DNA from: Candidatus Heimdallarchaeota archaeon
GTDB taxonomy: Archaea > Asgardarchaeota > Heimdallarchaeia > JABLTI01
Reading direction: 5' to 3'
Length of the DNA: 26,462 nt
Assembly (NCBI GenBank): GCA_018238155.1
Contig: JABCTZ010000042.1
Span: 1-26,462 of the forward strand
The position numbers were made by a program, and so were the translations under genes. Below, piece after piece: positions 1-19,246 of the stretch. The notes under the pieces are model-generated. The model did not search any database and was not told the origin of the DNA. It saw nothing but the letters and a program-made list of their open reading frames with translations. How positions within the stretch are numbered: the stretch's first letter is position 1; each line of letters starts with the position of its first letter.

Positions 1-3000
1 TTGATATTTGCATAAGCAGAAGAGGAGGATAGACCATAGGTATTAACCCACCAAGTATATTCAGCCTTATCACTTATGCCGTCATTGTCTGTGTCAGAAT
101 CTGTTGGATTGGTTTCAGAAGTGAAGATTTCAAAATAATCTGACCAACCGTCGTTATCCGTGTCACTATTTGTAAGACTGGTGCCATAGGTAAAGGCTTC
201 TAAGCGATCATTTAACCCATCGTTATCCGTATCGCTATCCCAGGGATTTCCTCCATAGAGGTATTCATCGATGTTCTTGAGGTTATCACCATCTAAATCA
301 GTTAATTCATCACTATCACTCGTGGGATTAAGTGAGTAGGTTACTTCCCAACCATCGGGCATGCCATCATTATCCGTGTCGGAATCTCTAGGGTCAGTAC
401 CAAGTGAATATTCGGAAATATTAGTTAAGCCATCATTATCAGGATCGTTCGCAGCATCATCAACAAGTGGATTTAGATTACGGGTTATTTCAAAACCATC
501 ATCCATTCCATCATTATCCGTGTCAGTATCTATTGGACTTGTACCATATGTATGCACTTCATCACCATCGTTAATGCCATCAAGATCAGAATCTGGTGCA
601 ACAGGATCTGAAAGATAGGTATTTACTTCGTCTCCATCTGTCAAACCATCGTTATCTATATCTGGATTATTACAATAACTGTATGCTGTAGAATCAGCTG
701 TTCCTAGACTTTTCCAATAATCATATTCGGAAACATCATCTAATCCATCTCCATCCGAATCACTTAACAAAGGATTTGTTAATGTAACACTTGTTTCATA
801 GTAGTCATTCCAACCATCATTATCAGTATCACTTATGAGTAAATCAGTTTCGTATACTGTAATTTCCATCAATGAAGATAATCCATCACAATCATGGTCA
901 AATTCAGCATCATTTGGATTAGTTGGATCAAGATTTAATTCATATTCAATATTATCATCAAGTCCATCCCCATCAGTATCCTTTACAAATGGATTTGTGA
1001 ATATCATTGATTCGATATAATTGGGTAAATGATCTTCATCAGTATCTTCTAGATTCCAATTTGAAATTGGAGATTCAAATGGATCAACATAATCTTGATA
1101 ATAACTATAGTCTTCATCATAACCATTAGCCCATTTTACTGCGTGTGTATAAACCTCCCAACCATCTTGCATTAAATCACCATCGCTATCTGGATTCAAA
1201 GGATCTAAAAGAAGTTCCCATTCTTCTTTATCACCTAGTCCATCGAAGTCACTATCTGTTGCAGCGGGATTAGACCAATAATCTATATCTTGTAATGTGA
1301 TTGTTTGACTATCCAACTCACCATTTCGGTCATGATCAGTTAAATAGACATCTACAGTTTCAGAATCTCCTAATAGTATTATCTCTTGATTATCATTTAA
1401 TCCATCTTTATCTGTATCGCTAGCAAATGGATTAGACTCGCATAGTATTTCAGTAATAGTTAATAATCCATCAGAATCATAATCAGAACTTGGATCCATC
1501 CAGATATATCGTTGGTCTTCAGGGATAGCATCAAAATTGGTATCAGTTGGTGTATCTGATATAAAGCTATATTCTTCTTCAGTATAAGCTTCAAAAATAT
1601 CTGCTATATAGATTTCATAATAATTTGCTTCTATTAAATTAGAAATCCCATCTCCATCATCATCATAGTAACGATTGGATTCATCTGAATCAAGAAAGCT
1701 TGAAATACTATCATCAATTTCATCATAGTCTGTCCAACTCCCCCCTTCTGGTTCTGAAACAGCAGTAGATAATTCTATTGATTGTGGATTATCATATAAA
1801 GGATTTCGACCTCGAAAAGGATTTGGAAATGATGACATACCAAATATAACTCCAATAGCAATACAACCTGTAACTACAGATCCTGTAGGACCACCAATCG
1901 CAAATCCTATAGCAACAGCTACACATAACATTAGAATATAACCCCAATTTTTAGCAAACCAGTCTCTTATAGGATATTTATCGGTATCTGTATCTGAATT
2001 TCCAGAGTCTATATAACCCTCTAATATATCTAGAGAGAGTGCGGCTAAAATCTCTGGAGCTTGATAAGTTCCGAGTGTATATACGTAATTGCCACGTTTT
2101 ATAATATTTTTAGATCTACACCAATCTTGATGATTTTCAACTTGAAAAATTAAAGCACTAACCGCAACTAAAAGCAAAGTACCTTCTGCACCAGTAGCTA
2201 ATGCACTTCTTATAGTATATCTTGTATGAGTACCTGGGGCTGAAGGATTCCTACCTGGCAATCCAATTAATATACCTACAAGACTTGCTGTTGAATAATT
2301 AGGATACAATTTAAACATCACAAGTTGAGTGTATTTGTCTGTTGGCTTCTTAAATATAAACCACATGGTACTATAACTTCTTAGGATGTCTTTGATTACA
2401 TAATTGTTTATGTATATTTCATCAGTTTTTGCATTTATGTGATCAGCGCCCCAATTCCCTCCTGGCTCTGTACTTTGTGAACCTTGTTGTAAATCTATAT
2501 GTAGGTAATCAGTAACAAATACTTTATCAAAAATATTCTGAATCGATAATGCTGATAATGCTAATATAGCTTGTAATCCGAATTGACTAAAAACCTCTGG
2601 TGTAACATATAATTGATATTTACATAATTGGTTACGCATTAAATCATTAATTCTTGGTTTGTATGAATTCCATTCAGCTAGACATCTAACAACTTCTTCA
2701 ACTTGGATATTTCCTTTAAAACCCATTACATTATCAAAATATTGTGAGATAATATATGAATCACAAGATGCTAATAACACCCATGAAAATTCATTGGATA
2801 ATTCATTAATCAAATTAGTCGAATCTCTTAAGCTTAATAGATAATATCCATGCTCAATTAGAACTGCCCAATCATTCTCGGAATAAACTAAATAACCAAA
2901 ATGAAATGGTTTGATTTTTGCATTGTATGCTTTTGCAATTTCAAATGCAATTAGATACATAATCGATAAGTCATCACAACTCAATCTTGAAATTAAATTA

Positions 3001-3266
3001 GCAATCTGAAACCTGACATCTAAATTTAAGCTTTCTTCAGAAAGCAAAAATAAACTACTTGGTTGTAGTTCGTTTCTTGTAATTTTAATTTCATTTTTGT
3101 CATTAACACTTATACAATTGCTATTAAGAATCAAATTAGAAGTAGCTTTTCTCTTAACGATATCGCAATTAATATCTCGTGCAAAAGAGAAACTACCCAA
3201 CAAACTGGCACATGCTATTAATATAATAATTAATAGAGCTCCGAATCTCTGCTTTTTCAAAATCAT
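1..3266 (-). CDS. Large secreted/surface protein with many Ca-binding Dx[DN]xDG (thrombospondin type-3-like) repeats; 3' end lies beyond the window start (>1088 aa)
   Basis: Not in the ORF track because it has no stop in the window. ATG at 3266 after GAAAGGA reads MILKKQRFGALLIIILIACASLLGSFSFA (signal-peptide-like). The same frame at the window start reads NPTDSDTDNDGISDKAE. DxDxDG repeats run over ~1-1700, and a hydrophobic hairpin lies at ~1840-1950. Confidence 0.85.
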   Translation of the reverse strand, partial: MILKKQRFGALLIIILIACASLLGSFSFARDINCDIVKRKATSNLILNSNCISVNDKNEIKITRNELQPSSLFLLSEESLNLDVRFQIANLISRLSCDDLSIMYLIAFEIAKAYNAKIKPFHFGYLVYSENDWAVLIEHGYYLLSLRDSTNLINELSNEFSWVLLASCDSYIISQYFDNVMGFKGNIQVEEVVRCLAEWNSYKPRINDLMRNQLCKYQLYVTPEVFSQFGLQAILALSALSIQNIFDKVFVTDYLHIDLQQGSQSTEPGGNWGADHINAKTDEIYINNYVIKDILRSYSTMWFIFKKPTDKYTQLVMFKLYPNYSTASLVGILIGLPGRNPSAPGTHTRYTIRSALATGAEGTLLLVAVSALIFQVENHQDWCRSKNIIKRGNYVYTLGTYQAPEILAALSLDILEGYIDSGNSDTDTDKYPIRDWFAKNWGYILMLCVAVAIGFAIGGPTGSVVTGCIAIGVIFGMSSFPNPFRGRNPLYDNPQSIELSTAVSEPEGGSWTDYDEIDDSISSFLDSDESNRYYDDDGDGISNLIEANYYEIYIADIFEAYTEEEYSFISDTPTDTNFDAIPEDQRYIWMDPSSDYDSDGLLTITEILCESNPFASDTDKDGLNDNQEIILLGDSETVDVYLTDHDRNGELDSQTITLQDIDYWSNPAATDSDFDGLGDKEEWELLLDPLNPDSDGDLMQDGWEVYTHAVKWANGYDEDYSYYQDYVDPFESPISNWNLEDTDEDHLPNYIESMIFTNPFVKDTDGDGLDDNIEYELNLDPTNPNDAEFDHDCDGLSSLMEITVYETDLLISDTDNDGWNDYYETSVTLTNPLLSDSDGDGLDDVSEYDYWKSLGTADSTAYSYCNNPDIDNDGLTDGDEVNTYLSDPVAPDSDLDGINDGDEVHTYGTSPIDTDTDNDGMDDGFEITRNLNPLVDDAANDPDNDGLTNISEYSLGTDPRDSDTDNDGMPDGWEVTYSLNPTSDSDELTDLDGDNLKNIDEYLYGGNPWDSDTDNDGLNDRLEAFTYGTSLTNSDTDNDGWSDYFEIFTSETNPTDSDTDNDGISDKAEYTWWVNTYGLSSSSAYANI

Positions 3267-3411: not shown

Positions 3412-4344
3412 ATGATAGAGATAAATAAAGACTTTATACCTTTAATTCTGGAAAGAAGTTCTGCAATAACTACTTATATTCTAAATAATGAATTACTTGG
3501 TTCCGAACAGACTTATAATCTTGGAACACATCCTTACAAAGCATTTGAACTCCTTACTACTTTGTATAATAATGAGCATACAAGAAAGGCTATCCCAAAA
3601 CGATTCCATCAATACCTATCTTTTGGAAGAGATAATCTAAAAACATACAAGTCATATCCCCTCGTTGGGGAAGGTTGCAGCTATGTAATCCAGTTTGATC
3701 TAATAACTGAGAAACAATCAAAAAAACCAGTCTTACTAAAAAATATTAATTATCTTCATAGTTCAGAAAAGAAGCTTGGTATTTCCATCCGTATCACTGG
3801 TGAAGAAGCATTTATGATCTTTGCTAATATTTTAACAAATGCTCTATGTGATAATTTCGATCATTTCCTAAAAGATAATTGGCTTAGGGATTTTGAACAA
3901 CTTGATATTAGAGCGGAAATACTTGAGTCAATTCAAAGAATGGAACAAATGGAAAATGTTGAACAAAGGAAAAGATATCTTGAGCTTTGGGGTTACTCCT
4001 ACCTCTCGATGAACGAGTTCGCATTAGAATATTTGAAATATATTAAAGAAAATATTCTTAGCAAGCAATTTACACCTTATTTTATCCAACATTTCAGTGG
4101 TTCAAGGGTACTTGTATTTCTTGGTTACCTCCAACCAGTCAGAGACTATTTCATAGAAATAAATAAGAAATTACTTTATCCTGAAAAATTATCAAAAAAT
4201 GAAATTAGGCTTTATTGTCATTTTCTCCAGGCATTTAGAAACCGTAGAAGTTATGAAGAAGATGAGGAAATTGATAATCTAATAGCAGTTTATTCTGTTT
4301 ATGCTCCTTTGTTTGAAAAATTCCTTTTCATGAAATTTCTATAG
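3412..4344 (+). CDS. Hypothetical 310-aa protein, paralogue of 24839..25774
   Basis: Shared blocks: HPYKAFELLTTLYNNEHTRKAIPKRFHQYL vs YPFRAFELLIKLYQNANARKGIPKRFYSYL; GEEAFMIFANILTN vs AEEAFSLLANILAN; SYLSMNEFALEYL vs SYLPMINFSLEYL. Confidence 0.85.
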   Translation: MIEINKDFIPLILERSSAITTYILNNELLGSEQTYNLGTHPYKAFELLTTLYNNEHTRKAIPKRFHQYLSFGRDNLKTYKSYPLVGEGCSYVIQFDLITEKQSKKPVLLKNINYLHSSEKKLGISIRITGEEAFMIFANILTNALCDNFDHFLKDNWLRDFEQLDIRAEILESIQRMEQMENVEQRKRYLELWGYSYLSMNEFALEYLKYIKENILSKQFTPYFIQHFSGSRVLVFLGYLQPVRDYFIEINKKLLYPEKLSKNEIRLYCHFLQAFRNRRSYEEDEEIDNLIAVYSVYAPLFEKFLFMKFL

Positions 4345-4362
4345 ATAAAAATTTCAGTATAA

Positions 4363-4414
4363 CTTTCTTCTTTAAGGTCGAGAAGTCCAGTATAGTAATG
4401 ACACGCCAAGGTGG
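4363..4414 (+). repeat. Island repeat, partial copy (right half)
   Basis: ctttcttctttaaggtcgagaagtccagtatagtaatgacacgccaaggtgg matches the right half of the full copies. Confidence 0.85.
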
Positions 4415-4463
4415 AAAGATTAAGTTTTCTGTTAAATACCAGCAAAAATTCGAAAATGAATTA

Positions 4464-4661
4464 TTACTTCTTCAAGTTAACTTTAAAACAAATAAATAGA
4501 GTAGATCCTTTTTTCACTCAAATAACCCAGTCTCACCTGAGGTTATAGGGGTTAGTAAAAGAAAATAAAAAATAACTGATAATTATTTTGTAGAATCTAC
4601 GGCCCTCGCTTCTTCTTGAAGGTCTAGAAGTCCAGGTCGGTAATGACATGCTTTGGTGGCA
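4464..4661 (+). repeat. Island repeat, full copy A (~200 bp)
   Basis: ttacttcttcaagttaa...tcaaataacccagtctcacctgaggttataggg...aaaataactgataattattttgtagaatctac-ggccctcgcttcttcttgaaggtctagaagtcc...taatgacatgctttggtgg. Confidence 0.95.
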
Positions 4662-4840
4662 AGTAAATGCTGGTTGAGTATCTTGCTAAAAGATTCTGTA
4701 TGTAAATACCAAACATGAAAAAATCAGCTAAATTACTTGAAAACGAATAATTCTTACTAATTTGCTTAATTCATCATCGAAAAATATAAAACCACAAACG
4801 AATTAATTGTTTTAAAAAACTGGATAAGTGGGATAAAATT

Positions 4841-5239
4841 ATGGCTAAGATTTTCATCAGTTATAGGGATGATGATATTGAATGGAGAAATAATCTATAT
4901 AGTTTATTAAGAAATCCTGAAACTGAATTTCAAGATGTTCCAATACAAGAAAGGGAGGATTACAGAGGTACATCTGAGAGAACCATAAAAGATTATTTAC
5001 GACCATTGATAAGCGATGCTAGTTGTTTGATTTTACTGGTAGGAAATAATACTCACAATGGATGGTTTTTAAATTGGGAAATTGATGTAGCAATCTCAAG
5101 ACAAATTCCAATTGGTGCAATTAGAATACCTGATACAATAGGTGGACTCCCTCCAAAAATAAAGGGAATGGAAATTCCATTAGTTAATTGGGATAATACA
5201 GAGATAAAAAATATGATTGATCAATTTTTTGGCAGATAA
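4841..5239 (+). CDS. TIR-domain protein (ThsB / MTH538-like)
   Basis: KIFISY start, ASCLILLVGNNTH, WFLNWEIDVA with the catalytic Glu, PIGAIRI, VNWD. Confidence 0.9.
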   Translation: MAKIFISYRDDDIEWRNNLYSLLRNPETEFQDVPIQEREDYRGTSERTIKDYLRPLISDASCLILLVGNNTHNGWFLNWEIDVAISRQIPIGAIRIPDTIGGLPPKIKGMEIPLVNWDNTEIKNMIDQFFGR

Positions 5240-5275
5240 TAAAGGAAATTTCACTAGTGGTAAAGTGGATTAAAA

Positions 5276-5599
5276 ATGATAGATAGACCAAAATGTATAG
5301 TTAAAGAAGAAAATAATCGAAAATCTTGTACTAGTCGAGCTAAAATGGAAATAAAAGTAACACTGTATCATCCTGGTTCCGAAAGAAAATCACAACAACA
5401 TTGGTTTCTGTGTGAAAAGCATATGAGATTATTTTTGGATGCAAAGGGGGAAGGTTGGTATGTAAGGTACAATAATAAAGAAAATATATCACCAGTAATT
5501 GATTATAGCATTATATTTGATATTGAACAAATAGCAAATATACCAAATATGATTAGAGATAAAACACATAAAGAAGAAAAAATCTTCTTAAATATATAA
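5276..5599 (+). CDS. Small hypothetical protein, possibly Zn-binding (C...C...CxxH)
   Basis: 107-aa ORF tightly inside the operon; PKC-x10-C and FLCEKH motifs. Confidence 0.65.
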   Translation: MIDRPKCIVKEENNRKSCTSRAKMEIKVTLYHPGSERKSQQHWFLCEKHMRLFLDAKGEGWYVRYNNKENISPVIDYSIIFDIEQIANIPNMIRDKTHKEEKIFLNI

Positions 5600-5612
5600 A
5601 AAGAGTGATTTT

Positions 5613-6203
5613 ATGGAAGATATACTAGTATTAATGTCAGGCGGAATTGATTCGTTTTTGATGTCTTCGATTCTAAATGAAGACTATTCCATACAACCAT
5701 TTTATGTTAATTATAATCACTTAGCATATTTAGAAGAAAAAAATGCTGTGATTAAACAAATTGATTATCTGAAATTAATGCCTTTAATTGAAGTTTCTGT
5801 CAATAATATCTCAAAATTAATGGTGAATTCTTTAGTTGTTGAAAACGAATTGAAAAACGACTTTTATCCAGCTCGTAACTTATTATTATTAACTTTAGCT
5901 AGTCAAATTGCTTACAGTAGAAATATTACCAGAATAGCAATTGGAATCATAGGTGGAAGTAGAATTTTTCCGGATTGTACTGATCATTTCATTTCTGAAT
6001 TGGAGAATATATTATCAATTTCTAATGATAAAGAAATCATAGTATTCAAACCCCTATCAAATTTATCAAAAAAAGAGGTAATCAAATTGTTTTTTAAAAC
6101 GAATCTACCATTTAATCTTGTTTATTCATGTCAAAAAGGAAATAAGGAGCATTGTAATTCATGCCCTTCTTGTAAAGAACTATTCAATGAAATAAATAGA
6201 TAA
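5613..6203 (+). CDS. queC: QueC-family (7-cyano-7-deazaguanine synthase-like, Cap9/QatC-like) PP-loop ATPase
   Basis: LVLMSGGIDS PP-loop, YPARNLLLL, FPDC, and the Zn site YSC-x7-CNSCPSC. Confidence 0.92.
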   Translation: MEDILVLMSGGIDSFLMSSILNEDYSIQPFYVNYNHLAYLEEKNAVIKQIDYLKLMPLIEVSVNNISKLMVNSLVVENELKNDFYPARNLLLLTLASQIAYSRNITRIAIGIIGGSRIFPDCTDHFISELENILSISNDKEIIVFKPLSNLSKKEVIKLFFKTNLPFNLVYSCQKGNKEHCNSCPSCKELFNEINR

Positions 6204-6216
6204 GGAGAGAAAGAAA

Positions 6217-7131
6217 ATGGAAATAACCCATGAAGCTCAATTTGGAAATAGTAGGATTTTTAAAATAAAAATCAAGGAAAAAGAGATATTTACTCCGATT
6301 TTTTTCCCTGCAGTATCAAGTGTAGATATTAGAAAGTTTGAATCTATACTTAACTGGTTAATTGAAAAAAAGCCAATTAATTTCTTAGTATCTGGCTATG
6401 ATATCAATACAGAAATAGTAAGAAAATTCCCGATTAAGGAAACTTTTTTGATGCTAGATAGTGGGGGATATGAGATAAGAAATTTAGAAAAAAAATCATC
6501 TTGGTCGTTAAATAATTACAAGGAGATTATTGAAAAACTTGAACCAGATATAATAATCTCTTTAGATCTTCCTGATAATCAAAATCCAATTCAAGATTAT
6601 TTGTCTTTAAAGAGTAATTTAAATGAAGATGTTTTTCTTGAATTTGTTATTAGTGAAACCAATCCAAAAAAAATTCCTAATATGTTAATTTCATCATTGC
6701 AAGAAATACAACCTAATGCAATAGCGATTCCAGAGAGGAATTTGGGATTATCATTTATTGAAAGATTAAAAACTGTTAGAAAAGTTTCTAATATTTTACA
6801 AAATATGGAAAATCCGATTTTATTTCATATATTAGGCTGTAGCGATCCTGATTCAATTATTAAATATGCCAATGAAGGAGTTGATTTATTCGATGGTTTA
6901 GGATGGTATAAACGCGCAGTTTTTTATAAAGAAATTAAAAATAATAAATATAAATTGTATTCAGATTGGTCATTTATAGATTCATCAAAATTATCTGATT
7001 GTAATTGTTTTGTATGTAAAAAGGCTGACGAAATCAATCATTTAGAGAGAGTATTATCACATAATTTGCTTGCATATTCAAAATTGTGTGAGGAATTACA
7101 AATGTATATTATTGAAGGAGGAAAATTGTAA
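6217..7131 (+). CDS. tRNA-guanine transglycosylase (TGT)-like protein 1 (Cap10-like)
   Basis: TPIFFP, LMLDSGGYE, IISLD, FHILG, GVDLFDG, Zn motif CNCFVC...HNL. Confidence 0.88.
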   Translation: MEITHEAQFGNSRIFKIKIKEKEIFTPIFFPAVSSVDIRKFESILNWLIEKKPINFLVSGYDINTEIVRKFPIKETFLMLDSGGYEIRNLEKKSSWSLNNYKEIIEKLEPDIIISLDLPDNQNPIQDYLSLKSNLNEDVFLEFVISETNPKKIPNMLISSLQEIQPNAIAIPERNLGLSFIERLKTVRKVSNILQNMENPILFHILGCSDPDSIIKYANEGVDLFDGLGWYKRAVFYKEIKNNKYKLYSDWSFIDSSKLSDCNCFVCKKADEINHLERVLSHNLLAYSKLCEELQMYIIEGGKL

Positions 7132-7665
7132 ATGGGTGGTGGTGGTGGTGGTCGAGAAACTTCATATAGTAAATCAACTACAGGAATAAATTCACAGAAT
7201 TTAAGAAGAGAAGTAAAAGACAGCATAAGAAAAACCGAAAAAAGATTAAAATCAAAAGAATCAAAGATTACCTATCCTTCCAGAAATGTATTCATAAGCT
7301 TTCATATGGCTGATGAAATGCAAGTAAAATTGTTAAGACATCAAGCTAAAGATAATAGATTTAATTTTAAATTCAGAGATTATTCAGCTAAAGAAGCATT
7401 TAAGGACCCTTGGAAAAAATATTGCCGAGAAAAAATCAAACAATCCTCGTTTACAATTGTTATGATTGGAGAAGATACTCATAAGAGACCTGCTGTAAAA
7501 TGGGAAATTGCTGAAAGTTACAGACAAGGAAAGGAAGTCATTGGAATACGCATGTATAGAGATGAAAATTATAAAATACCACAGCAAATGAACGAGAAAA
7601 ATGCTAAAATCGTAAATTGGAATTTGGGTGATATTATGGAAATTCTTAGTGAAGCTTCTTATTAA
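7132..7665 (+). CDS. TIR-domain protein (ThsB / MTH538-like) with N-terminal MGGGGGG extension
   Basis: RNVFISF, FRDYS, SSFTIVMIGEDTH, AVKWEIAES (catalytic Glu). The ATG directly follows the TGT1 stop, with GGAGG at 7117-7121. Confidence 0.9.
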   Translation: MGGGGGGRETSYSKSTTGINSQNLRREVKDSIRKTEKRLKSKESKITYPSRNVFISFHMADEMQVKLLRHQAKDNRFNFKFRDYSAKEAFKDPWKKYCREKIKQSSFTIVMIGEDTHKRPAVKWEIAESYRQGKEVIGIRMYRDENYKIPQQMNEKNAKIVNWNLGDIMEILSEASY

Positions 7666-7699
7666 TGAGATTATTGAGATCTGAAGGAAGAGATGGCTT

Positions 7700-8638
7700 A
7701 TGAAAATAGATTTAATCAAGAAATTGAACATGGCAAAATCTTACAGAATTAAAATTAATAATTTTGAATTCAAAACGCCATTTTTTTTTCCTTCAATCTC
7801 AACATATAAAAATAATTTCGATACAATATTTAAATGGGTTTTAAGTAATCGATGTAACCAATTTTTATTTTCAGCTTATGATCTTAATAACAAGAGAACT
7901 GAATTATTGGCTAAAAAAAATATGAATATCTGTTTAGATAGCGGTGGATTTGAATTAAAAATACTAGAAAACCCAAAAAAATGGGATATTTATGATTTAA
8001 TAAACGTTTGTAATTCGGGAAAATTTGATATGATTATCTCTTTAGATCCATTTTTCGATAAAGAAGTTTTGCATAAATTCTTTCATACAAAAAATGATAT
8101 CTTAATACTATATTATGAAAAAATGGTTGAATCAATAAATTATGAAAGTCTTTTTGAATTTGCAATAACTGAGCATAAACCTGAAATGATAATTAAACAA
8201 TTGAAATATACCTTGAAAAAAATTAATCCAAACGCAATCGCTATCCCTGAGGAAAATTTGGGATTCACTTTTTCTGAAAAAATAAGCAATATAGAAACAA
8301 TTTCGAATCTACTGTCCAATCAATCAAATCCAATTTTATTTCATCTAAGAGGGTGCAGTAACCCTTTATCGATGATTGAATATTCATTGAGTGGTGTTGA
8401 CATATTTGATGGATTGGGATGGTCATCAAAAGTCATTAAAAAAACAGAAAACATATCAAATGAAGGAAAAATTTTACACAATTGGAAAACTTTCGATTAT
8501 AGTAAATTAGATAATTGTGAATGTGATGCATGTAAATCAAACAAAAGAAAAAAATATAATGATAAAGTATTAGCTCATAATTTATTTGCATATAAGAAAC
8601 TATTATCTGAAATCCAATTATTAATTAATGATCACTAA
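7700..8638 (+). CDS. TGT-like protein 2, paralogue of 6217..7131
   Basis: TPFFFP, CLDSGGFE, IISLD, PNAIAIPE, GVDIFDGLGW, CECDAC...HNL. Confidence 0.88.
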   Translation: MKIDLIKKLNMAKSYRIKINNFEFKTPFFFPSISTYKNNFDTIFKWVLSNRCNQFLFSAYDLNNKRTELLAKKNMNICLDSGGFELKILENPKKWDIYDLINVCNSGKFDMIISLDPFFDKEVLHKFFHTKNDILILYYEKMVESINYESLFEFAITEHKPEMIIKQLKYTLKKINPNAIAIPEENLGFTFSEKISNIETISNLLSNQSNPILFHLRGCSNPLSMIEYSLSGVDIFDGLGWSSKVIKKTENISNEGKILHNWKTFDYSKLDNCECDACKSNKRKKYNDKVLAHNLFAYKKLLSEIQLLINDH

Positions 8639-9573
8639 CTTAAATCGCTGTGATTGATATAGTAATTTCTTATATTTGTATATAAAGAATCAAATGCATT
8701 AGCAATAATTAAATGAGATTTAGCGGTTCTATAATCGATATTTTTTTTGTATTTCTCTAATAATATTTTTAATAAATCTAATTCAAATTTAGCAATTTGA
8801 TTTTTTCTGTATGAAATAATTTCTGGAAAGCAAAACCAAGTACAAGAATCATAATACGATAATAAGTAACTATGATAAACCATATTATCAGTAATTTTTT
8901 TGATTTCAAGAATTCGGATTTTCTTTTTTTCACCAACATCTCTTTCAGAAATGCCCATAACCAAATTTAAGATATTATCATATGCCTTAATAAAATTAAA
9001 TGGTGCACATCCCAATAATAAATCTCCTTCATATATTTCTGGAGAAATAATAAACTTATTTTTTATTAAAATCTCTATTTCAATAATAAGTTCTTTCCTT
9101 TTACTCTCCTCTCTATGAAAAACCTCATCAAGAACGTTATTTGAATTCTTTAGAAAATCATCTTTACAATTACTTAAACCCATTTTTGTATAAATAGTTA
9201 CTATATCATTAACGTATTTAATCAGAATATTTCTTGATACAGAATGAAATTTCGGTGAGTGGTATAATCTATTCCGAATTTCATGATATTCCAGCAATTT
9301 ATCAAACATATTCTTTATTTTTTTAAATTGTTTCTGTTTCTTACACATTTTGATTATATTTTCAAAGGATCTATTCTTTACAGGAATTCCAATAATAGTT
9401 TCCAAATAACTACGTAGTGTTCTTTCAACAACATTATCCAGTAATACAAAACTTTGCCGCAATGATGTATCATCGTTATTTTCTGCTAAAATAATGATAT
9501 TTCCTATAGATTTGTATAAATCCTCTATCCATAACCTATCTTGGTTTTTTTTAATTACCATTGCAATCCCCAA
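8635..9573 (-). CDS. HEPN-domain protein (putative RNase effector) with an unknown C-terminal domain
   Basis: SFVLLDNVVERTL helix and the HEPN R-x4-H motif EIRNRLYH. The start may be the ATG at 9561. Confidence 0.7.
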   Translation of the reverse strand: MGIAMVIKKNQDRLWIEDLYKSIGNIIILAENNDDTSLRQSFVLLDNVVERTLRSYLETIIGIPVKNRSFENIIKMCKKQKQFKKIKNMFDKLLEYHEIRNRLYHSPKFHSVSRNILIKYVNDIVTIYTKMGLSNCKDDFLKNSNNVLDEVFHREESKRKELIIEIEILIKNKFIISPEIYEGDLLLGCAPFNFIKAYDNILNLVMGISERDVGEKKKIRILEIKKITDNMVYHSYLLSYYDSCTWFCFPEIISYRKNQIAKFELDLLKILLEKYKKNIDYRTAKSHLIIANAFDSLYTNIRNYYINHSDLS

Positions 9574-9583
9574 TTTATTTTAT

Positions 9584-10171
9584 TTATATTTGCCAATTGC
9601 TAATAAGTGAATCAAAATTATAACCAACCCAAATTAGTACCAATATTGTGAAAACACCATATACAATAATCAAAGTTACGGGTATCCAAATTTCACCAAA
9701 AGTGATTTCTATATATTTCTTATCAATAATTTTTCTATTTCTTTTCCTGAATTTCTTCAATTTTATAATTCTTTTCTTGGGTTTCTTCGGTTTTTTATTC
9801 TTTTTCATTAATGCCCATTCTATTGTATATCCTTTTGCTGGTAATCTTTTTTCAATTTCATTAATAACTTGAAATTTGCTATCATTTAGTTTTTTATATT
9901 TTTTAATAAGTCGCTGCCAGCTTAAATCAAAAATGATACCAATAATAAGAACAATAAAAGTCCAGTGAATTAAATTTGATTCAACTAATAATCCAATAGC
10001 AACTAGAAATAAACTATTTGCAGTAAGAAAGAAGTTATTCATTGTGGCTCTTCTTGAACTAATTCTATCAGCCATCTCAATAAACAATTTATACTGTTTA
10101 AAAAGAGTATCTTTATCGTTCATTTCATCTTTATTAAAAAGATTGTTTATTGGTGAATCTTTGTTAGACAA
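9584..10171 (-). CDS. RipA/Rip1-like multi-pass membrane protein (putative pore-forming effector)
   Basis: QYKLFIEMADRISSRRATMNNFFLTAN, two TM helices, W..LIKKYKKLN.SKF.VI.EIEKRLP...EW, and a third TM at the C-terminus. Confidence 0.75.
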   Translation of the reverse strand: MSNKDSPINNLFNKDEMNDKDTLFKQYKLFIEMADRISSRRATMNNFFLTANSLFLVAIGLLVESNLIHWTFIVLIIGIIFDLSWQRLIKKYKKLNDSKFQVINEIEKRLPAKGYTIEWALMKKNKKPKKPKKRIIKLKKFRKRNRKIIDKKYIEITFGEIWIPVTLIIVYGVFTILVLIWVGYNFDSLISNWQI

Positions 10172-10591
10172 TAGAAACCTACCTCATCTTCAATTAAATG
10201 TATTACTTTGTTTAAATTTATATTTTTTGTTTTTACTGATTGACCTAAAATTAGAAAATTAGATTATCCTTTTAAAGTTAATGTTTTTGTAGTTTTCCAT
10301 TCAGCAATATCAGTATATTCAAGTTCTTTACATTCTAAAGTAATAAAGTCTTCATCTATTCTACGTTTGAATCTATTAATCAAGAACAATTACAAATTTT
10401 GTTGAACGAACACCTAGGTATAGATTGGTCAAATAATATCGATTATTTTGTAACATCAAGTATAAGAAGAAATAGCTCAAACTTGATTGAAATATAGTAA
10501 CTATAAAAAGGTAAATCAAAATAAAAGAGAAAAATAATTGTCAAGGCTTCATCGTGGTACTTTTGGTGGGATTAAACAGGTTACAATTAAA

Positions 10592-10806
10592 TACTTCTTC
10601 AAGTTAAATATAAAATAAGATTGACCCTTTTTCGTTCAAATAACCCTAGTCTCACCTGAGGTTATAGGGATAAATAAAAGAAAATAAAAAATAACTGATA
10701 ATTATTTTGTAGAATCTACGACCCTCGCATCTTCTGTAAGGTCTAAAGTCCATTTCGGAAATGACACGCTTTGGCAGCAGTTTTCTCCAAATTATTATTT
10801 CTTTAC
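10592..10806 (+). repeat. Island repeat, full copy B
   Basis: tacttcttcaagttaa...ttcaaataaccctagtctcacctgaggttataggg...gtagaatctacgaccctcgcatcttc...gtccatttcggaaatgacacgctttgg...ttatttctttac. Confidence 0.95.
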
Positions 10807-11276
10807 CACCATTTAAACCCATGTAAATCATCATGTTCTTTTTTAGACATAACTTCCAAGTTATCAGGTTCGTTGTTAAGTTTGTCACCATCGATATGAT
10901 GAACAACTTCACCACGACGAAGTTTTCTACCAACAACATAGTTTTCAGCAACCCAACGATGAACATATTCTCCTGAATCGCTAAACCGCATATATCCTCT
11001 ACTATCTTCATAGGTCTCAGATTCATCAACATCTCTTGGGGAGTAAGAGTCACAATTACAAATTCTACCAAACTTGAAAAGGATAATACCTAAGACTACA
11101 ATAACTCCAATTGCTATAAACCATCCATTGTGAAATAAAATACCAATAATAAATAAAATTACTCCTAAAAGAAAGAATGTACCTGTACAACCTAAAACTG
11201 AAATACAAGAACTTTTTTCCTCAATCTCCTCATCTTCTTCTTCATCATCTCCAAAACAACAATTGAATAGTCCCAT
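10803..11276 (-). CDS. Membrane-anchored HNH endonuclease
   Basis: Two TM helices followed by YVHRWVAE...EVVHHIDGDKLNNEPDNLEVM...EH (HNH motif). The stop codon lies in the end of repeat B. Confidence 0.85.
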   Translation of the reverse strand: MGLFNCCFGDDEEEDEEIEEKSSCISVLGCTGTFFLLGVILFIIGILFHNGWFIAIGVIVVLGIILFKFGRICNCDSYSPRDVDESETYEDSRGYMRFSDSGEYVHRWVAENYVVGRKLRRGEVVHHIDGDKLNNEPDNLEVMSKKEHDDLHGFKWW

Positions 11277-11348
11277 TAAATCCCTTCACTATAACCATTA
11301 AAAGTAAACACTAATCTTTATTAGTTTTACGATTCTCAAATTAGACTT

Positions 11349-11374
11349 GTATACTAATCATAATTTTAGTATAC
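11349..11374. promoter_or_regulatory. Inverted repeat GTATACTAA-N8-TTAGTATAC; candidate operator or recombination site
   Basis: Perfect 9-bp arms in the divergent region between the HNH and REase genes. Confidence 0.4.
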
Positions 11375-11523
11375 TGAAAAAAAATAAAATGGAAAATTCA
11401 GAGCCATTACACCCACATCCTCTCTGAAAGTAATGATTCTTGGAATCAATAAACAGAAATATTATAAAACTAGAAAATTGATTAGAATTAGAGCAAAAAA
11501 CAATTCATATAATTGGTGATTCA

Positions 11524-12606
11524 ATGAAGGGAAATATTGGAGAATGGAGTGAAATATATACATTCATGAAATTACTCGCAGATGGAAAACTATATGCAGC
11601 AGATGCTAATCTTGAAAAAATTGAATCGATTTTTTATCCGATTTTAAAAATTATTCGTGAAGAAAACAATGTAAAACTTATCTATGTTCGAAACTCAATG
11701 ATTAGAATAGCAGAAGAAGATGAAATAATTACTCTTAAAGAAGAGAAAGTAGAGAATTTCCAAAAAACAGCTAGACAATTACTAAGTTATCTAAAGGAGT
11801 CAAAAGGCAGGTCATTTGAATTTCCTGACATTGAACTTTTTCTGAATTCTATAATGTGTAAAGATTTGAAATCTAAATCAAATAACAAAAAGGATATTAC
11901 AATCGTAATCCATGATCCAAATACTGGTTTTGAACCAACACTGGGTTTTAGTATAAAAAGTCAACTGGGTTCACCTTCTACCTTATTAAATCCTGGAAAA
12001 CCAACGAATTTTCTATTCAAGATAAACAATTTAACACTTACAGATGAACAAGTACAAGAGATTAATAATATATCAACAAAAAGTAAAATCAAAGATAGAG
12101 TTAACAAAATTTTTTCTCTAGGAGGCAGACTTGAATTTTCGGGAATTGAAAATCCAACATTTAAATCCAATCTCCAATTAATTGATTCAAATTTACCATT
12201 CATATTAAGTGAATTGTTAACACTATTTTTTAGAGGGGAAGGAAGGACTTTACTTGAATTAATCCAAAAGATAATAGACGATAATCCATGCGATTTTGTA
12301 AATCCCAATGAACAACCATTTTACGAATATAAAATTAAGAAACTCCTACTTGATATAGCGTTAGGTATGACACCTACAAAAACTTGGACAGGAATATATG
12401 ATGCAACAGGAGGATACATCATTGTTAAAAAAAGTGGTGAGATTTTATCGTATCATATTTACAATTTAAATGAGTTTCAAAATTATTTACTAAATAATAC
12501 TAAGTTGGATTCACCTAGCTCAACACGCTATGAGTATGGAAAAATATACAAAGATACTGATGAGTTATATTTTAAATTGAACTTGCAAATTAGATTTATA
12601 AGTTAA
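11524..12606 (+). CDS. HpaII-family type II restriction endonuclease
   Basis: GNIGEWSEIY, KKDITI, GFSIKSQLGSPSTLLN, C-terminal KLNLQIRF; adjacent to a C5 MTase. Confidence 0.88.
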   Translation: MKGNIGEWSEIYTFMKLLADGKLYAADANLEKIESIFYPILKIIREENNVKLIYVRNSMIRIAEEDEIITLKEEKVENFQKTARQLLSYLKESKGRSFEFPDIELFLNSIMCKDLKSKSNNKKDITIVIHDPNTGFEPTLGFSIKSQLGSPSTLLNPGKPTNFLFKINNLTLTDEQVQEINNISTKSKIKDRVNKIFSLGGRLEFSGIENPTFKSNLQLIDSNLPFILSELLTLFFRGEGRTLLELIQKIIDDNPCDFVNPNEQPFYEYKIKKLLLDIALGMTPTKTWTGIYDATGGYIIVKKSGEILSYHIYNLNEFQNYLLNNTKLDSPSSTRYEYGKIYKDTDELYFKLNLQIRFIS

Positions 12607-12684
12607 TAAAGGAATGATTCCCATATTACTTAGTGGCACTTATAAATTGAAATTTGAACATAAATAATAGATTGGAGCAATAAA

Positions 12685-13998
12685 ATGGATGGAATTTTCA
12701 GAGCTATTGACCTATTTGCTGGCATAGGTGGCATTCGTTTAGGGTTTAAAGAAGCCTTTAATGATGAAATAGAATTTGTCTTTTCAAATGAAATTGATCC
12801 CTATTGTTGTCAAACGTATAAAGCAAATTTTGGCGATGATCCCTTAGGAGATATTACTAAAATAAACCCTAATAGTATTCCTGATTTTGATATTCTATTA
12901 GCAGGTTTTCCATGCCAAGCCTTTTCAATTGCCGGACGGAAAGAAGGATTTGACGACACTCGAGGAACGTTATTTTATAATATAGCTAAAATTCTAGATG
13001 CCAAAAAACCAATGGCTTTTCTTTTAGAAAATGTACCTCACTTAATGAATCATGACAAAGGTAGAACATTTCAAATAATTCGAGATATATTGGAAGAAGA
13101 TCTAAATTATAATATTCATTATATAATTTTAAATGCAAAAAATTTTGGTTTGCCCCAAAACCGGCCTAGAATTTTTATCGTAGGTTTCAAGCAGAACCTA
13201 CGTTTTACATTTCCTAAACCAACAAACGAAGTGATTAAATTAGAAGAAATCCTTGAAGATAAAGTTGATGAGTCCTATTATCTTTCACAACAATATTTGA
13301 ATGGTTTGAAAAAGCACAGAGCAAGACATGAAGCAAAAGGTAATGGATTTGGTTATGTAGTTGTCTCTAGAAATGGCATAGCAAATGCTATCGTTTTAGG
13401 TGGTATGGGTAAAGAGAGGAACTTGGTGAAGGATAAAATATTAACAAACTGTTGGAAGAGAGAAGGAGATAATATTCAACTTCGAAATAACGAAGGCATA
13501 AGAAAAATGACGGAAAGAGAATGGGCTAGATTACAGGGATTCCCTGAAACATTTACTTTCCCTGTAGCAAAAACACGAATTTATAGACAACTAGCTAATT
13601 CGGTTTCTGTTCCAGTTATAAGTGCAATAGCTAAGGAAATACTGAAAAGTTTAACTGAAAATATAATAGAAAAAAAACCAATCTTAAATACAAATGAAAA
13701 ACATGCAATTGATTTATTATTAACAATGTTTAGAAGAAAGAAATTTACTCATTCGGGAAAAAAAATGAAGAGTTCAATATATAGCATTATCAAAAATTAT
13801 GCATTAAGAATTGATGATATCGATGAAATTTTGAACATATTATTTAAATTGAAATTAATTGAAAGACTTGAAAAAGACAAGTTATATTTCAACAAGAAAT
13901 TGTTAAGCATAAATACTGAGACAGAATTTAAAAAATTAATTTATGACAGTTTTTTTGATGGAAAACCAATTTCAACGACAATTGAACAATATATCTAA
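12685..13998 (+). CDS. dcm: DNA (cytosine-5) methyltransferase, M.HpaII-like, with a ~110-aa C-terminal extension
   Basis: Motifs DLFAGIGG, AGFPCQAFS, LENV, PQNRPRIF, ARLQGFP, QLANSV; TRD segment RHEAKGNGFGY resembles M.HpaII. Confidence 0.95.
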   Translation: MDGIFRAIDLFAGIGGIRLGFKEAFNDEIEFVFSNEIDPYCCQTYKANFGDDPLGDITKINPNSIPDFDILLAGFPCQAFSIAGRKEGFDDTRGTLFYNIAKILDAKKPMAFLLENVPHLMNHDKGRTFQIIRDILEEDLNYNIHYIILNAKNFGLPQNRPRIFIVGFKQNLRFTFPKPTNEVIKLEEILEDKVDESYYLSQQYLNGLKKHRARHEAKGNGFGYVVVSRNGIANAIVLGGMGKERNLVKDKILTNCWKREGDNIQLRNNEGIRKMTEREWARLQGFPETFTFPVAKTRIYRQLANSVSVPVISAIAKEILKSLTENIIEKKPILNTNEKHAIDLLLTMFRRKKFTHSGKKMKSSIYSIIKNYALRIDDIDEILNILFKLKLIERLEKDKLYFNKKLLSINTETEFKKLIYDSFFDGKPISTTIEQYI

Positions 13999-14024
13999 AA
14001 TATAAAGTAAATTGATAATTCAAC

Positions 14025-14426
14025 TCATTTTAAATAGTGCTCAATATCAAGTACGATTTGATCTAAATTATCTTTTATTTCATGACCCCAAAATCTCAAT
14101 ACAATCCATCCTTTTTCTTTTAGAATAAGATTCACTTTAGTGGCTCTAGTTTTATTGGATTCGAATTTATTTAGCCAAAAATCCTTATTTGAATCTGGAA
14201 TCTTTTTGCAAATCGGACATCCATGCCAATAACAACCATCACAAAAAATAGCTATTTTTTGCTTGACAAAAACTATATCAGGCTTACCTTCAATTTTGTA
14301 TTGAACTCTAAAGCGATGACCTCGTATCCATAGAGCTGATCTTAAGGTCTTTTCTATACCGGTATCACGAGTTTTTATTTTACTCATTAATTTACTTCTT
14401 TGTTCAGGAGTGAATATATCTACCAT
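14025..14426 (-). CDS. vsr: Very short patch repair endonuclease
   Basis: MVDIFTPEQRSKLMSKIK, PDIVF, IFCDGCYWHGC, WIVLRFWGHE. The likely start is the ATG at 14426 rather than 14456. Confidence 0.93.
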   Translation of the reverse strand: MVDIFTPEQRSKLMSKIKTRDTGIEKTLRSALWIRGHRFRVQYKIEGKPDIVFVKQKIAIFCDGCYWHGCPICKKIPDSNKDFWLNKFESNKTRATKVNLILKEKGWIVLRFWGHEIKDNLDQIVLDIEHYLK

Positions 14427-14537
14427 TTTGACTCTAGACTCACTATAACTAAACAATTAATAATTTGAAAGTTTTATGTAACAAAGTATCCAAATTTCAC
14501 ATTCAATCTGTATATTTAGTTAGCAGAAGTGTATTAA

Positions 14538-15717: not shown

Positions 15718-15922
15718 TTAATTCTTCAGGTTAACAAAAAACAAGTAGATCCTTTTTTCATTCAAATAACCCTAGTCTCACCTGAGATTGTAGGAGGTAT
15801 TAAAAGAAAAAATAACTGATTATGTAGAATCTACAGCCCTCGCTTCTTCTTGAAGGTCTAGAAGACCATTTCGGTAATGACACACTTAGGTGGTAGTTTT
15901 CTCAGAGTAATTATTTCTTTAC
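15718..15922 (+). repeat. Island repeat, full copy C
   Basis: ttcttcaggttaac...gtagatccttttttcattcaaataaccctagtctcacctgagattgtagg...gtagaatctacagccctcgcttcttcttgaaggtctagaagaccatttcggtaatgacacacttaggtgg...ttatttctttac. Confidence 0.95.
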
Positions 15923-16046: not shown

Positions 16047-17471
16047 TTGGATAATTTGAGCTATAGAGATAATAGCCTACCTGAATGGCAAGTTGAGTTA
16101 GCAATTTTAGATAATCTTACCATATTAAATCATCCAAATTTACCAATAAATTATGATAGAATCGAGAATCAATATTATTTAAAAAGCAAAGGTAGATATA
16201 TTGATATTTTACTGAGAAAAAAAAATCACTTCTACATTGTTGAACTTAAAGGAGTACATATCGATCAAGAATCAATTATTACTGATCAATTATTGGATTA
16301 TAAAGAGGGAATACAGAGAGAAAAAAACGTGTCAAGTGCAAATATTACTTGTATATTAGCTTCTCCTTATGGTTTTTCTAACAATGTAGTAAAACTAGCA
16401 GAGAAAGAGGCAATTATTTTAATTGAACTTAATGAACGAATGATATATAAATTGCTGCCAAAAAAAACAGAGAATTTAAACTATTACATAGAAAAAAGGA
16501 TTATTCAACGAAGATTAGATATAACAGACAATAAAACTATTAATGAAATAATTTCAGGAAAAAATCAAAACTATAATTCAATAATTAGTAGTACAAAAAA
16601 TTGGTTGAAAAATAGAATTCATGATGATAAAGATAAAGTAGCTATTTCTATACGAATGAAAAAAATAAGTGAATATGCACCAATTATGGCTCATGACATT
16701 AATGAAATTACTGATTTCAATTTGAATGATGATAATGAAAAATGGTGGTGGCTTGTATATAGTATTTTAGATAAAAGAGGAAATGCATCATCTTTTTATC
16801 ATGTAAAGGAACATCTTTTACGAAAGAATCTTTTTTATCCTGAAGATATAATACAGCATATCAATAGTGAATCTGACACATATACTTTGGAATTATTATC
16901 TACATACATTTCCGAATCAGGTATTTCTACAAGACAAAATATTAGATCTTTAGCTGAAGGGATATTTATGGCAGCAAAAAAAATAGAAAAATATAATTTT
17001 AATTTTTCTAATATTTTTAATGAGTGCAAAAAACAATCAATAAATAAAAGTGATTTATTTGACAAAATTTGGGATTTTTTTATAGAAATATATGGTGTTG
17101 GTCCTAGAATTTGTAGTCAGATAGTTAGAGGATTAATTTTAAAGGGTGGTTGGGATTTAGAAAAAAGTAGTCATAGATTATTAGAAGAACAAAAACATAA
17201 TATCTTCATTGCAAAACAATGTCTAAGTTTGATAGATGATAAAGGGAAATTTAAGCAAGAATTGTTAGAGTTCTCAATGAAATATCTTGATGGAAATAAT
17301 GCTATTTTATCACACATTCTATGGTATATTCGTAAAAAGTATATGTGTACTAGTAAAAAACCATTGTGTGAACATTGTCCAATGTCTGGTTATTGTAATG
17401 TATATCTAAATAATGTTCTTAAATTTGATAAATTAACAGGACAAGTGAAAATTACAGACTTTTTTAATTAG
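16047..17471 (+). CDS. Fusion of a NucS/EndoMS-like PD-(D/E)xK nuclease and an HhH-GPD/EndoIII-like [4Fe-4S] domain, with a C-terminal PIP-box
   Basis: RYIDILL...IVELK...QLLDY; HhH IYGVGPRI; C-x6-C-x2-C-x5-C (CTSKKPLCEHCPMSGYC); ends QVKITDFFN. Confidence 0.8.
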   Translation: MDNLSYRDNSLPEWQVELAILDNLTILNHPNLPINYDRIENQYYLKSKGRYIDILLRKKNHFYIVELKGVHIDQESIITDQLLDYKEGIQREKNVSSANITCILASPYGFSNNVVKLAEKEAIILIELNERMIYKLLPKKTENLNYYIEKRIIQRRLDITDNKTINEIISGKNQNYNSIISSTKNWLKNRIHDDKDKVAISIRMKKISEYAPIMAHDINEITDFNLNDDNEKWWWLVYSILDKRGNASSFYHVKEHLLRKNLFYPEDIIQHINSESDTYTLELLSTYISESGISTRQNIRSLAEGIFMAAKKIEKYNFNFSNIFNECKKQSINKSDLFDKIWDFFIEIYGVGPRICSQIVRGLILKGGWDLEKSSHRLLEEQKHNIFIAKQCLSLIDDKGKFKQELLEFSMKYLDGNNAILSHILWYIRKKYMCTSKKPLCEHCPMSGYCNVYLNNVLKFDKLTGQVKITDFFN

Positions 17472-17487
17472 ATATAAATAATAATTT

Positions 17488-19242: not shown

Positions 19243-19246
19243 AATA

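Follow-up and report, generated by a model that had tools for sequence, protein, structure and literature searches.

Can the protein-tagging module of type IV CBASS (cyclic oligonucleotide-based antiphage signalling systems), which is built around a QueC-like and a TGT-like protein, also serve TIR signalling enzymes of the Thoeris kind? The question is posed by a locus of Candidatus Heimdallarchaeota archaeon (assembly GCA_018238155.1, contig JABCTZ010000042.1), in which two ThsB-like TIR genes share an operon with a QueC gene and two genes for TGT-like proteins. The stretch of DNA analysed, hereafter the window, is the entire contig (C31; 26,462 nt, or 26.5 kb) of a 4.08 Mb genome in 46 contigs. 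From the evidence presented here we think it probable that the locus is a Thoeris-type TIR antiviral signalling cassette fitted with the ancillary module of type IV CBASS, and that it acts by the mechanism proposed below.

In type IV CBASS a CD-NTase and an effector are accompanied by Cap9 and Cap10 and, in some systems, by Cap11 (Millman, 2020; Wassarman et al., 2025, with structures 9ntn and 9nto). Within these systems the QueC-like Cap9 attaches 7-amido-7-deazaguanine (NDG) to Gly2 of the CD-NTase, the CD-NTases all having an N-terminal extension that starts M(G/S)G(G/S)GG, and the TGT-like Cap10 binds the NDG-tagged tail together with the helix that follows it; Cap10 works as a dimer, each client tail entering the opposite protomer (Wassarman et al., 2025). 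Cap11 is optional, being present in about one third of the systems.

A Gly-tailed TIR protein in a QueC/TGT operon

Six open reading frames (ORFs) on the forward strand, all in one direction and tightly packed (gaps of 36, 13, 13, 0 and 34 nt), occupy positions 4841–8638 and encode, in order, a tail-less ThsB-like protein (TIR-1), a small Cys/His protein, a Cap9-like QueC, a Cap10-like TGT (TGT-1), a Gly-tailed ThsB-like protein (TIR-2) and a second Cap10-like TGT (TGT-2). Two further genes on the reverse strand, for a HEPN-like protein and for a three-transmembrane (three-TM) protein of the Pfam family 8xMP, converge on this operon. All eight lie in a single cassette (about 4660–10600) bracketed by a repeat pair without strand, of which the left copy (4483–4659) matches the right copy (10602–10778), the two being 83% identical over 133 nt and 6119 nt apart.

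An earlier note on this DNA, made from the sequence alone, had read the same six genes as a unit with two ThsB-like TIRs carrying intact WE motifs, a QueC and two paralogous TGT-like proteins, and our ORF calls, Pfam and PADLOC agree with it on each of these. Its coordinates hold for the operon and leave out the two convergent genes of the same cassette (8635–9573 and 9584–10171); it also named no effector, for which the 8xMP protein just outside its coordinates is most likely. It had further stated that the window has no queD, queE, dpd or CD-NTase gene. Pfam scans of the other large ORFs of the window indeed found no CD-NTase/SMODS, NTP_transf, QueD or Dpd gene; a generic radical-SAM/SPASM gene (19247–20230) gives the sole QueE-like signal, at 23.8 bits.

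TIR-1 (132 aa; 4841–5239, +; Pfam ThsB_TIR, 4.3e-13; PADLOC ThsB, 3.9e-11) starts MAKIFISY and carries the W-E motif at W79-E80, with E80 the catalytic Glu. TIR-2 (177 aa; 7132–7665, +; Pfam ThsB_TIR, 1.2e-18) has its motif at W124-E125, with E125 the catalytic Glu, and is set apart by its N-terminus: the gene begins ATG(GGT)6, directly abutting the stop codon of TGT-1 and with GGAGG upstream, so that the protein starts MGGGGGG and continues with a helical extension of about 50 aa ahead of the TIR fold. Homologues of TIR-2 were detectable in 99 cases, 59 of which start M[GS]3+, and many of the remainder have a Gly run a few residues past a doubtful or miscalled start; within a 46-sequence alignment G2–G4 are at least 90% conserved. 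TIR-2 thus has the acceptor motif and the extension of type IV CBASS clients, but on a TIR protein instead of a CD-NTase, and on these sequence features it is predicted to be an NDG acceptor and Cap10 client. None of the other cassette proteins has a Gly tail.

The QueC and TGT proteins as Cap9 and Cap10 relatives

The Cap9-like QueC (196 aa; 5613–6203, +; Pfam QueC, 1.4e-31; PADLOC CBASS-type QueC PDLC00911, 1e-31) has an SGGIDS pyrophosphate loop (S9, G11, D13, S14) and a C-terminal Cys zinc motif, and it keeps equivalents of the Cap9 residues S18/D22/S23, R86, Y115 and D117, with Y115 as Phe. In the PDB it matches Bacillus subtilis QueC (3bl5, 1.7e-13) and Cap9 (9nto_B, 9.8e-13) about equally well. 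TGT-1 (304 aa; 6217–7131, +; Pfam TGT, 5.5e-13; PADLOC CBASS-type TGT PDLC00913, 4.6e-30) and TGT-2 (312 aa; 7700–8638, +; Pfam TGT, 4.3e-06; PDLC00913, 1e-21) each have Cap10 (9ntn_A) as their only match in a PDB sequence search (5.1e-07 and 0.0036, respectively). The Cap10 residues D73/S74, D122, H226 and D248 correspond to D81/S82, D117, H204 and D226 of TGT-1, and are invariant across 19 homologues including TGT-2; TGT-1 also retains the CxCxxC...H zinc motif, and TGT-2 keeps D80/S81, H215 and D237 as well as the zinc motif.

The two TGT proteins are 37% identical, and TGT-2 occurs solely in the window and in one related locus (L006/L007). In a tree TGT-2 is nested within the Cap10 clade of TIR-1-bearing loci (support 98/99) on branches of 0.84 and 0.72, far longer than those of TGT-1 (0.14 and 0.24), and evolves 3–6 times faster than TGT-1, while the Cap10 of an Asgard CBASS locus forms a separate clade (100/100). 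Judged from the tree and the retained residues, TGT-1 is the conserved Cap10 of this system, and TGT-2 is a recent, lineage-specific and fast-evolving Cap10 duplicate with an intact active site.

Are these proteins simply the archaeosine or queuosine enzymes of the host? The QueC scores 93 bits against the NCBIfam equivalog cut-off of 150, TGT-1 scores 29.5 against 350 (TgtA) and 21.9 against 307 (Tgt), and TGT-2 scores 19 against 307. Elsewhere in the genome are housekeeping genes for QueC with an adjacent QueE-like radical-SAM protein (contig C13), two QueD (C21) and ArcTGT (C11); this ArcTGT is 91% identical to the one of a Candidatus Heimdallarchaeota MAG, in keeping with an Asgard host. 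Given these separate copies and the missed cut-offs, a housekeeping role was rejected and the cassette proteins are extra paralogues; moreover, the pathway encoded elsewhere means that the host can plausibly supply 7-carboxy-7-deazaguanine (CDG). A pattern scan with TGT-1 in the genome_contigs set returned two weak matches only. Modification of DNA with 7-deazaguanine by a Dpd system was likewise rejected, since the CBASS TGT model scores 103 bits where DpdA scores 13.2 (E 0.007), with no dpdB–K gene among the window ORFs in Pfam.

Further QueC-like or TGT-like paralogues of the genome lie on C9 (10917–11513), C4 (69080–70093), C26 (19731–20756) and C21 (32129–32743); the C4 type, about 378 aa long, recurs throughout the genus and appears to be a housekeeping protein.

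Co-variation of the Gly tail with Cap9 and Cap10

We compared 12 loci with a Gly-tailed TIR (the window, L003/L097, L004/5, L006/7, L008, L009, L010, L030, L031, the P0043 contig, L098 and L039). A QueC-like gene is present in all 12 and a Cap10-like gene in 11, the exception (L039) being cut by the contig end; 8xMP is found in 11 and an OGG-like Cap11 in five. Tail-less relatives of TIR-2 (P0095, P0091) have 8xMP, but not QueC or TGT. Thus the Gly tail co-varies with Cap9 and Cap10, and a TIR with 8xMP is the basal module. Strong Cap10-like matches are rare, occurring in 6 of 400 Asgard genomes and in none of 10 other genomes of the host genus.

Four loci (the window, L003, L004 and L006), none of them with Ogg, have TIR-1 and the small protein ahead of Cap9, TIR-1 orthologues taking the same position in the latter three; the five Ogg-bearing loci lack both TIR-1 and the small protein, so that the two arrangements are mutually exclusive in this sample (5 versus 4). 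Since TIR-1-class proteins also adjoin 8xMP without Cap9/10 (L043, L050 and L051), TIR-1 resembles an ordinary second ThsB sharing the effector, as in multi-ThsB Thoeris islands, and several loci do contain two or three different TIRs per one 8xMP. In another Asgard genome (G250) the module stands in a type IV CBASS with QueC, TGT, a SMODS CD-NTase and Ogg (L099, contig C50, 4918–8159), from which it appears that the Cap9/10 module swaps between, or serves either of, the two kinds of signalling enzyme.

Some of these loci have features of their own. In L010 a 473-aa protein joins TIR_2 to a Cap10-like TGT (4275–5696); its neighbours are Ogg, QueC and a Gly-tailed TIR, and the island around them has a SLATT gene and several further TIR proteins. 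QueF-like genes, of the nitrile reductase family, and in one locus a QueT transporter gene lie in or beside Cap9/Cap10-TIR operons (L008:4074–4340; L081:2101–2619; the P0043 contig; L030:2624–3118), and may adjust the local 7-deazaguanine pool; the accessory genes named in the accessible portion of the Cap9/Cap10 paper are Cap9, Cap10 and Cap11 only (Wassarman et al., 2025). A small ORF of 64–71 aa, 53% identical between L008 (5338–5553, −) and L030 (4324–4518, −), is conserved in these Ogg-bearing TIR systems, where it is flanked by the Cap10 and Ogg genes and read from the other strand; it may be a regulator. A feature search of the atlas returned unnamed clusters only.

Predicted docking of TIR-2 on TGT-1

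The complex of TGT-1 with TIR-2, modelled from the own alignment of each protein (19 and 46 rows, respectively), gave ipSAE values of 0.69, 0.72 and 0.67, compared with 0.00 in three controls; 58 of 80 solved complexes and 2 of 110 mismatched pairs attain the mark applied to this score. The runs had at least 74% of contacts in common, with partner pLDDT of at least 68. The confident interface joins residues 11–42 of TIR-2, which belong to the extension and not to the TIR fold, to residues 2–25 and 51–54 and the C-terminal helix (281–299) of TGT-1. The model therefore supports docking of TIR-2 on TGT-1 via its N-terminal extension, and the modelled interface resembles the way in which CdnD docks on Cap10 by a helix clamp.

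The 8xMP, HEPN-like and small Cys/His proteins

The 8xMP protein (PF24838; 195 aa; 9584–10171, −; Pfam 8xMP, 1e-31) is encoded next to the Gly-tailed TIR in 11 of the 12 loci. Family members above the cut-off occur in 20 of the 400 Asgard genomes sampled across the phylum, and every strong 8xMP locus there (14 of 14) has a TIR gene directly adjacent. Considering this linkage, 8xMP is likely to be the effector of the TIR signal. PADLOC and Pfam found no cassette match to the known effectors of Thoeris types I–XI (ThsA SIR2-SLOG, Macro-TM, SLATT, DUF2270 and others), nor SLOG, Macro or SAVED nucleotide-sensing domains in any cassette protein. A literature search for 8xMP or octameric membrane protein found nothing relevant, and NCBIfam returned nothing for 8xMP, either TIR, the small protein or the HEPN-like protein.

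On contig C20 of the same genome (L028:6945–7939) a tail-less TIR (140 aa) and an 8xMP protein (187 aa) are encoded convergently without Cap9/10; orthologues of this pair occur in most genomes of the genus, with an 8xMP match in 8 of the 10 others.

The HEPN-like gene (8635–9573, −) encodes 312 aa from a TTG start, or 308 aa from the ATG at 9561; it is convergent with the operon, its stop overlapping that of TGT-2. Its product contains an invariant RNxLYH motif (R96-N97-x-L-Y-H101; RNRLYH) and a C-terminal alpha/beta domain, and matches HEPN structures over its N-terminal helical bundle: with an AlphaFold2 (AF2) model of pLDDT 66, the best Foldseek hits are 3o10, 6m6u and 8xeh (probability 0.98–1.00, TM about 0.6, E about 0.08–0.1). 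Pfam offers no family at E up to 10. Only two homologues were found, one of them in the same position in L006; the 400 Asgard genomes contained marginal N-terminal matches only, and a metagenome scan for the homologue P0180 gave nothing. Going by the modelled fold, the protein is plausibly a candidate accessory RNase effector, or else an unrelated passenger.

The small Cys/His protein (107 aa; 5276–5599, +) has no Pfam family, nothing appearing at E up to 10, and is conserved in four loci at 31–55% identity. Its family has 59 cluster representatives among 1.84 billion; across 48 members C18 and C46 do not vary, and conservation at H32 and H49 is at least 90%. The AF2 model is confident (pLDDT 87.5), and no fold match was found in the structures searched (Foldseek PDB best E 0.15; atlas TM at most 0.51; VIA-wide best Z 3.8). 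The protein is also found in non-TIR contexts.

Relation to described systems

The earlier note had proposed that a QueC/TGT control module is coupled here to TIR enzymes, and the acceptor motif of TIR-2, the co-variation of its tail, Cap9 and Cap10 as closest solved relatives, the separate housekeeping QueC and ArcTGT and the TIR-2/TGT-1 model all speak for that coupling. As to the checks that it named, the gene neighbourhoods compared here show QueC in all 12 Gly-tailed loci, and PADLOC matched its CBASS-type QueC and TGT and its ThsB models and no Qat model. Of the outcomes that the note would have taken as refutation, a housekeeping role for QueC/TGT with an unconserved TIR linkage is not what was found. 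A match to an already described system largely was: the architecture, which the note did not recognize, had been reported, and the features of the variant remain.

Thoeris operons with cap9, cap10 and cap11 were reported bioinformatically by Yirmiya et al. (bioRxiv 10.64898/2025.12.03.692087, December 2025, Fig. 6G), together with an AlphaFold3 (AF3) model of the TIR with Cap9/Cap10 in which TIR–Cap10 ipTM is 0.79 (Fig. S10B); these operons were not among the systems tested by the authors. As in the window, one operon unites a TIR with a catalytic Glu, an effector, a QueC-like cap9 and a TGT-like cap10, binding of the TIR to Cap10 is predicted (ipSAE 0.69 here), and the mechanism would be analogous to that of type IV CBASS. 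The window cassette differs in having no Cap11 (no Ogg-HhH match), in adding TIR-1 with the small protein, a second Cap10 and a HEPN-like gene, and in its predicted effector (8xMP) and Asgard host. The general architecture is therefore already published in a preprint and is not new; what is undescribed is the variant, without Cap11 and with two TIRs, two Cap10s, the small protein, the HEPN gene and 8xMP, in an Asgard host. Neither a Gly motif at the N-terminus of these TIRs nor its co-variation with cap9/10 is mentioned in the text of the preprint. In the literature searched, the link between Cap9/10 and TIR occurs only in this preprint and in reviews, with TIR not mentioned in the accessible portions of the QueC-family sequence similarity network paper and the Cap9/10 paper; as far as that literature shows, the co-variation of Gly tail with Cap9/10 and the 14 of 14 linkage of TIR with 8xMP are unreported.

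Classical type IV CBASS was rejected as an identity for the cassette, given that Pfam found no SMODS gene among the window ORFs and that the same tools did recognize one in G250. The two nevertheless have in common a Cap9-like QueC with SxGxDS, a Cap10-like TGT whose pocket has the D/S, D, H and D residues, and a client in which an N-terminal M-G-G-G-G tail leads into a docking helix; type IV CBASS, whose effectors are often membrane proteins, is also found in archaea. They differ in that the window has no CD-NTase and a TIR as client, Cap10 is duplicated, the TGT zinc motif is kept, and the acidic residues of the client-binding helix of Cap10 (E38, D42, D45 and D65) are not conserved here.

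A predicted ‘TIR + 3TM’ Thoeris configuration is listed in Table S1 of Yirmiya et al. (bioRxiv 10.64898/2025.12.03.692087), and not in Table S2 of tested systems. There too a small ThsB-like TIR adjoins a three-TM protein, and the C20 TIR shares the motifs LFISHSW.Y, (Y/K)NYSVPK and YS.WI.KEI with the 3TM-class TIRs, although this basic module is without Cap9/10; from the motif likeness, judged by eye, we infer that the 3TM protein of the preprint may correspond to Pfam 8xMP. In QatABCD (QatA ATPase, QatB, QatC, QatD TatD nuclease) the QueC-family QatC deazaguanylates QatB, again an activity repurposed to a protein N-terminus in defence, whereas the window has a TGT-like Cap10 and TIRs instead; this system was rejected, as none of nine proteins tested with PADLOC matched a Qat model.

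Proposed mechanism and alternative explanations

We suggest that, after removal of the initiator Met, the Cap9-like QueC would use ATP and host CDG to place NDG on Gly2 of TIR-2. TGT-1 would then bind the helical extension and hold the NDG-tagged tail, keeping TIR-2 primed yet controlled until infection releases or activates it. Together with the untagged, tail-less TIR-1, TIR-2 would convert NAD+ into an ADP-ribose-derived signal, which would activate an oligomeric three-TM 8xMP, so that the membrane is damaged and infection aborted. TGT-2 would probably pair with TGT-1 or offer a second NDG pocket, and the HEPN protein may be a second effector of RNase type.

The sequence analysis establishes the gene content, the motifs, the conserved residues, the co-variation among loci and the limits of the cassette; docking of TIR-2 on TGT-1 has the support of a model, and NDG conjugation, the nature of the signal molecule, the effector role of 8xMP and the roles of TGT-2, HEPN and the small protein are inferred. 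Several points weigh against this scheme. The compared loci are interrelated, and their counts consequently overstate independence. The complex model is 1:1, was built from the own alignments and does not place the Gly tail in the Cap10 pocket. The Cap9 residues checked are probably common to true QueC and so do not discriminate by themselves, and five of the six Cap10 pocket or catalytic residues map to TGT-1, the region of K154 being poorly aligned. Unlike the solved Rhizobiales Cap10, the Cap10-like proteins keep CxCxxC...H, which makes residual nucleic-acid binding possible. Cap11/OGG is absent from the cassette. Lastly, 8xMP is without an experimentally established function and without a PADLOC model, and a ligand site in it is conjecture.

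How else might the locus work? The main rival takes the TIRs as NAD+-depleting effectors triggered by 8xMP as a membrane sensor or anchor, with Cap9/Cap10 still gating TIR-2. TIR domains do serve CBASS, Pycsar and pAgo systems as NADase effectors (Yirmiya et al., bioRxiv 10.64898/2025.12.03.692087), the effector function of 8xMP is itself a prediction, and Pfam and PADLOC found no SLOG, Macro or SAVED domain for sensing a signal in the cassette proteins. Yet the TIRs are minimal single-domain proteins of the ThsB family (PF08937), like the signal generators of Thoeris; two or three TIRs per 8xMP is the many-sensors-one-effector layout of Thoeris; and TIR-2 sits where the Cap9/10 module otherwise has its signal-making CD-NTase. 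Considering these features, we regard this explanation as distinctly unlikely. The notion that QueC and the TGTs modify nucleic acid with 7-deazaguanine, in the manner of Dpd or archaeosine enzymes, with the TIRs as unrelated neighbours in the island, is very improbable and disfavoured. It would account for the catalytic Asp and CxCxxC...H kept by the Cap10-like proteins, the weak DpdA match (13.2 bits, E 0.007) and the QueF-like and QueT genes of related loci, but it is at odds with the wide margin by which the QueC, ArcTGT and Tgt equivalog cut-offs were missed, with housekeeping copies elsewhere in the genome and no dpdB–K genes, with a TIR linkage that all 12 loci keep and that varies together with the Gly tail, and with a TGT-1 stop that abuts the TIR-2 start codon.

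Two further possibilities concern the second Cap10. TGT-2 and HEPN may form a sub-module, in which TGT-1 and TGT-2 are a heterodimer (compare QTRT1/QTRT2) or TGT-2 moves NDG-tagged TIR-2 to a target, thereby licensing the HEPN RNase as a second, RNA-directed arm. The TGT-2 and HEPN-like genes co-occur in both loci that have either (the window and L006/L007), TGT-2 keeps all catalytic and base-binding residues yet evolves 3–6 times faster than TGT-1, the HEPN motif RNxLYH is invariant, and Cap10 is a dimer whose client tails enter opposite protomers (Wassarman et al., 2025). However, only two independent loci are involved, the HEPN fold comes from a model of pLDDT 66 with Foldseek E of about 0.1, the HEPN gene is convergent and not co-transcribed, and the Gly tail is on TIR-2 alone, so that we consider the sub-module a possible but on the whole doubtful proposal. 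It is rather unlikely that the Cap10 paralogues act as an asymmetric pair, in which docking of TIR-2 would fall to one and retention or transfer of NDG to the other, with TIR-1 and the small protein as regulator in the place of Cap11 and with tagged TIR-2 driving both an 8xMP pore and a HEPN RNase.

Significance

Protein deazaguanylation was found only in 2025, and the target and purpose of the Cap10 transfer step are still open in the field. The evidence from this locus and its relatives speaks for control of TIR proteins, a second and unrelated class of signalling enzymes in immunity, by the same module; as the acceptor motif moves along with the module, Cap9/Cap10 appears to be a portable regulator and not a CBASS-specific device. 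Within one TIR family the comparison provides a testable rule, namely that a Gly tail goes with Cap9/10 and that tail-less members go with 8xMP alone, and it nominates 8xMP (PF24838) as a Thoeris-type effector common in Asgard archaea. No other prokaryotes are as closely related to eukaryotes, in which TIR signalling is used as well. If the rewired arrangement with two Cap10s were true, the compact cassette would offer a tractable route to the target of Cap10-mediated NDG transfer. What is added here is a variant with comparative evidence, rather than a new kind of system.

The surrounding defence island

By Pfam, the window is a defence island with HpaII restriction–modification (R-M), C5 methylase, Vsr, HNH, Nmad3 and radical-SAM genes. 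The repeat (about 180 nt) that bounds the cassette has a partial copy beside its left copy (4340–4414) and further copies at 15728–15893, 21433–21507 and 23994–24068. As a family, these intergenic repeats (about 75–180 nt, 61–89% identical) split the island into cassettes of 2.5–6 kb, each with a different system, a layout that recalls an integron-like or hotspot array. The repeats have no Rfam match, scans of the window with Rfam and for tRNA were empty, and a sigma-70 promoter and terminator scan, which is not applicable to an archaeon, was at chance level. An upstream gene of 310 aa (3412–4344) was excluded from the system, being outside the repeat copy at 4483–4659 and not conserved in related loci; its product has no Pfam match at E up to 10.

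Directly past the right repeat is a full HpaII-type R-M cassette (10803–14456), with HpaII endonuclease, C5 cytosine methylase and Vsr mismatch endonuclease, together with an HNH endonuclease. A neighbouring cassette encodes a 474-aa protein with an EndoIII-type Fe-S motif (16047–17471, +) and, convergent with it (17488–21338, −), a 584-aa protein, a radical-SAM/SPASM enzyme and an Nmad3 protein; this cassette (16047–21338) is probably a separate nucleotide-modification defence system, and its 474-aa protein was not counted as Cap11. At the other end of the contig a gene (3–3266, −) runs off the edge; its product, longer than 1088 aa, has bacterial TSP3 (thrombospondin type 3) repeats and is probably a surface protein unrelated to the cassette.

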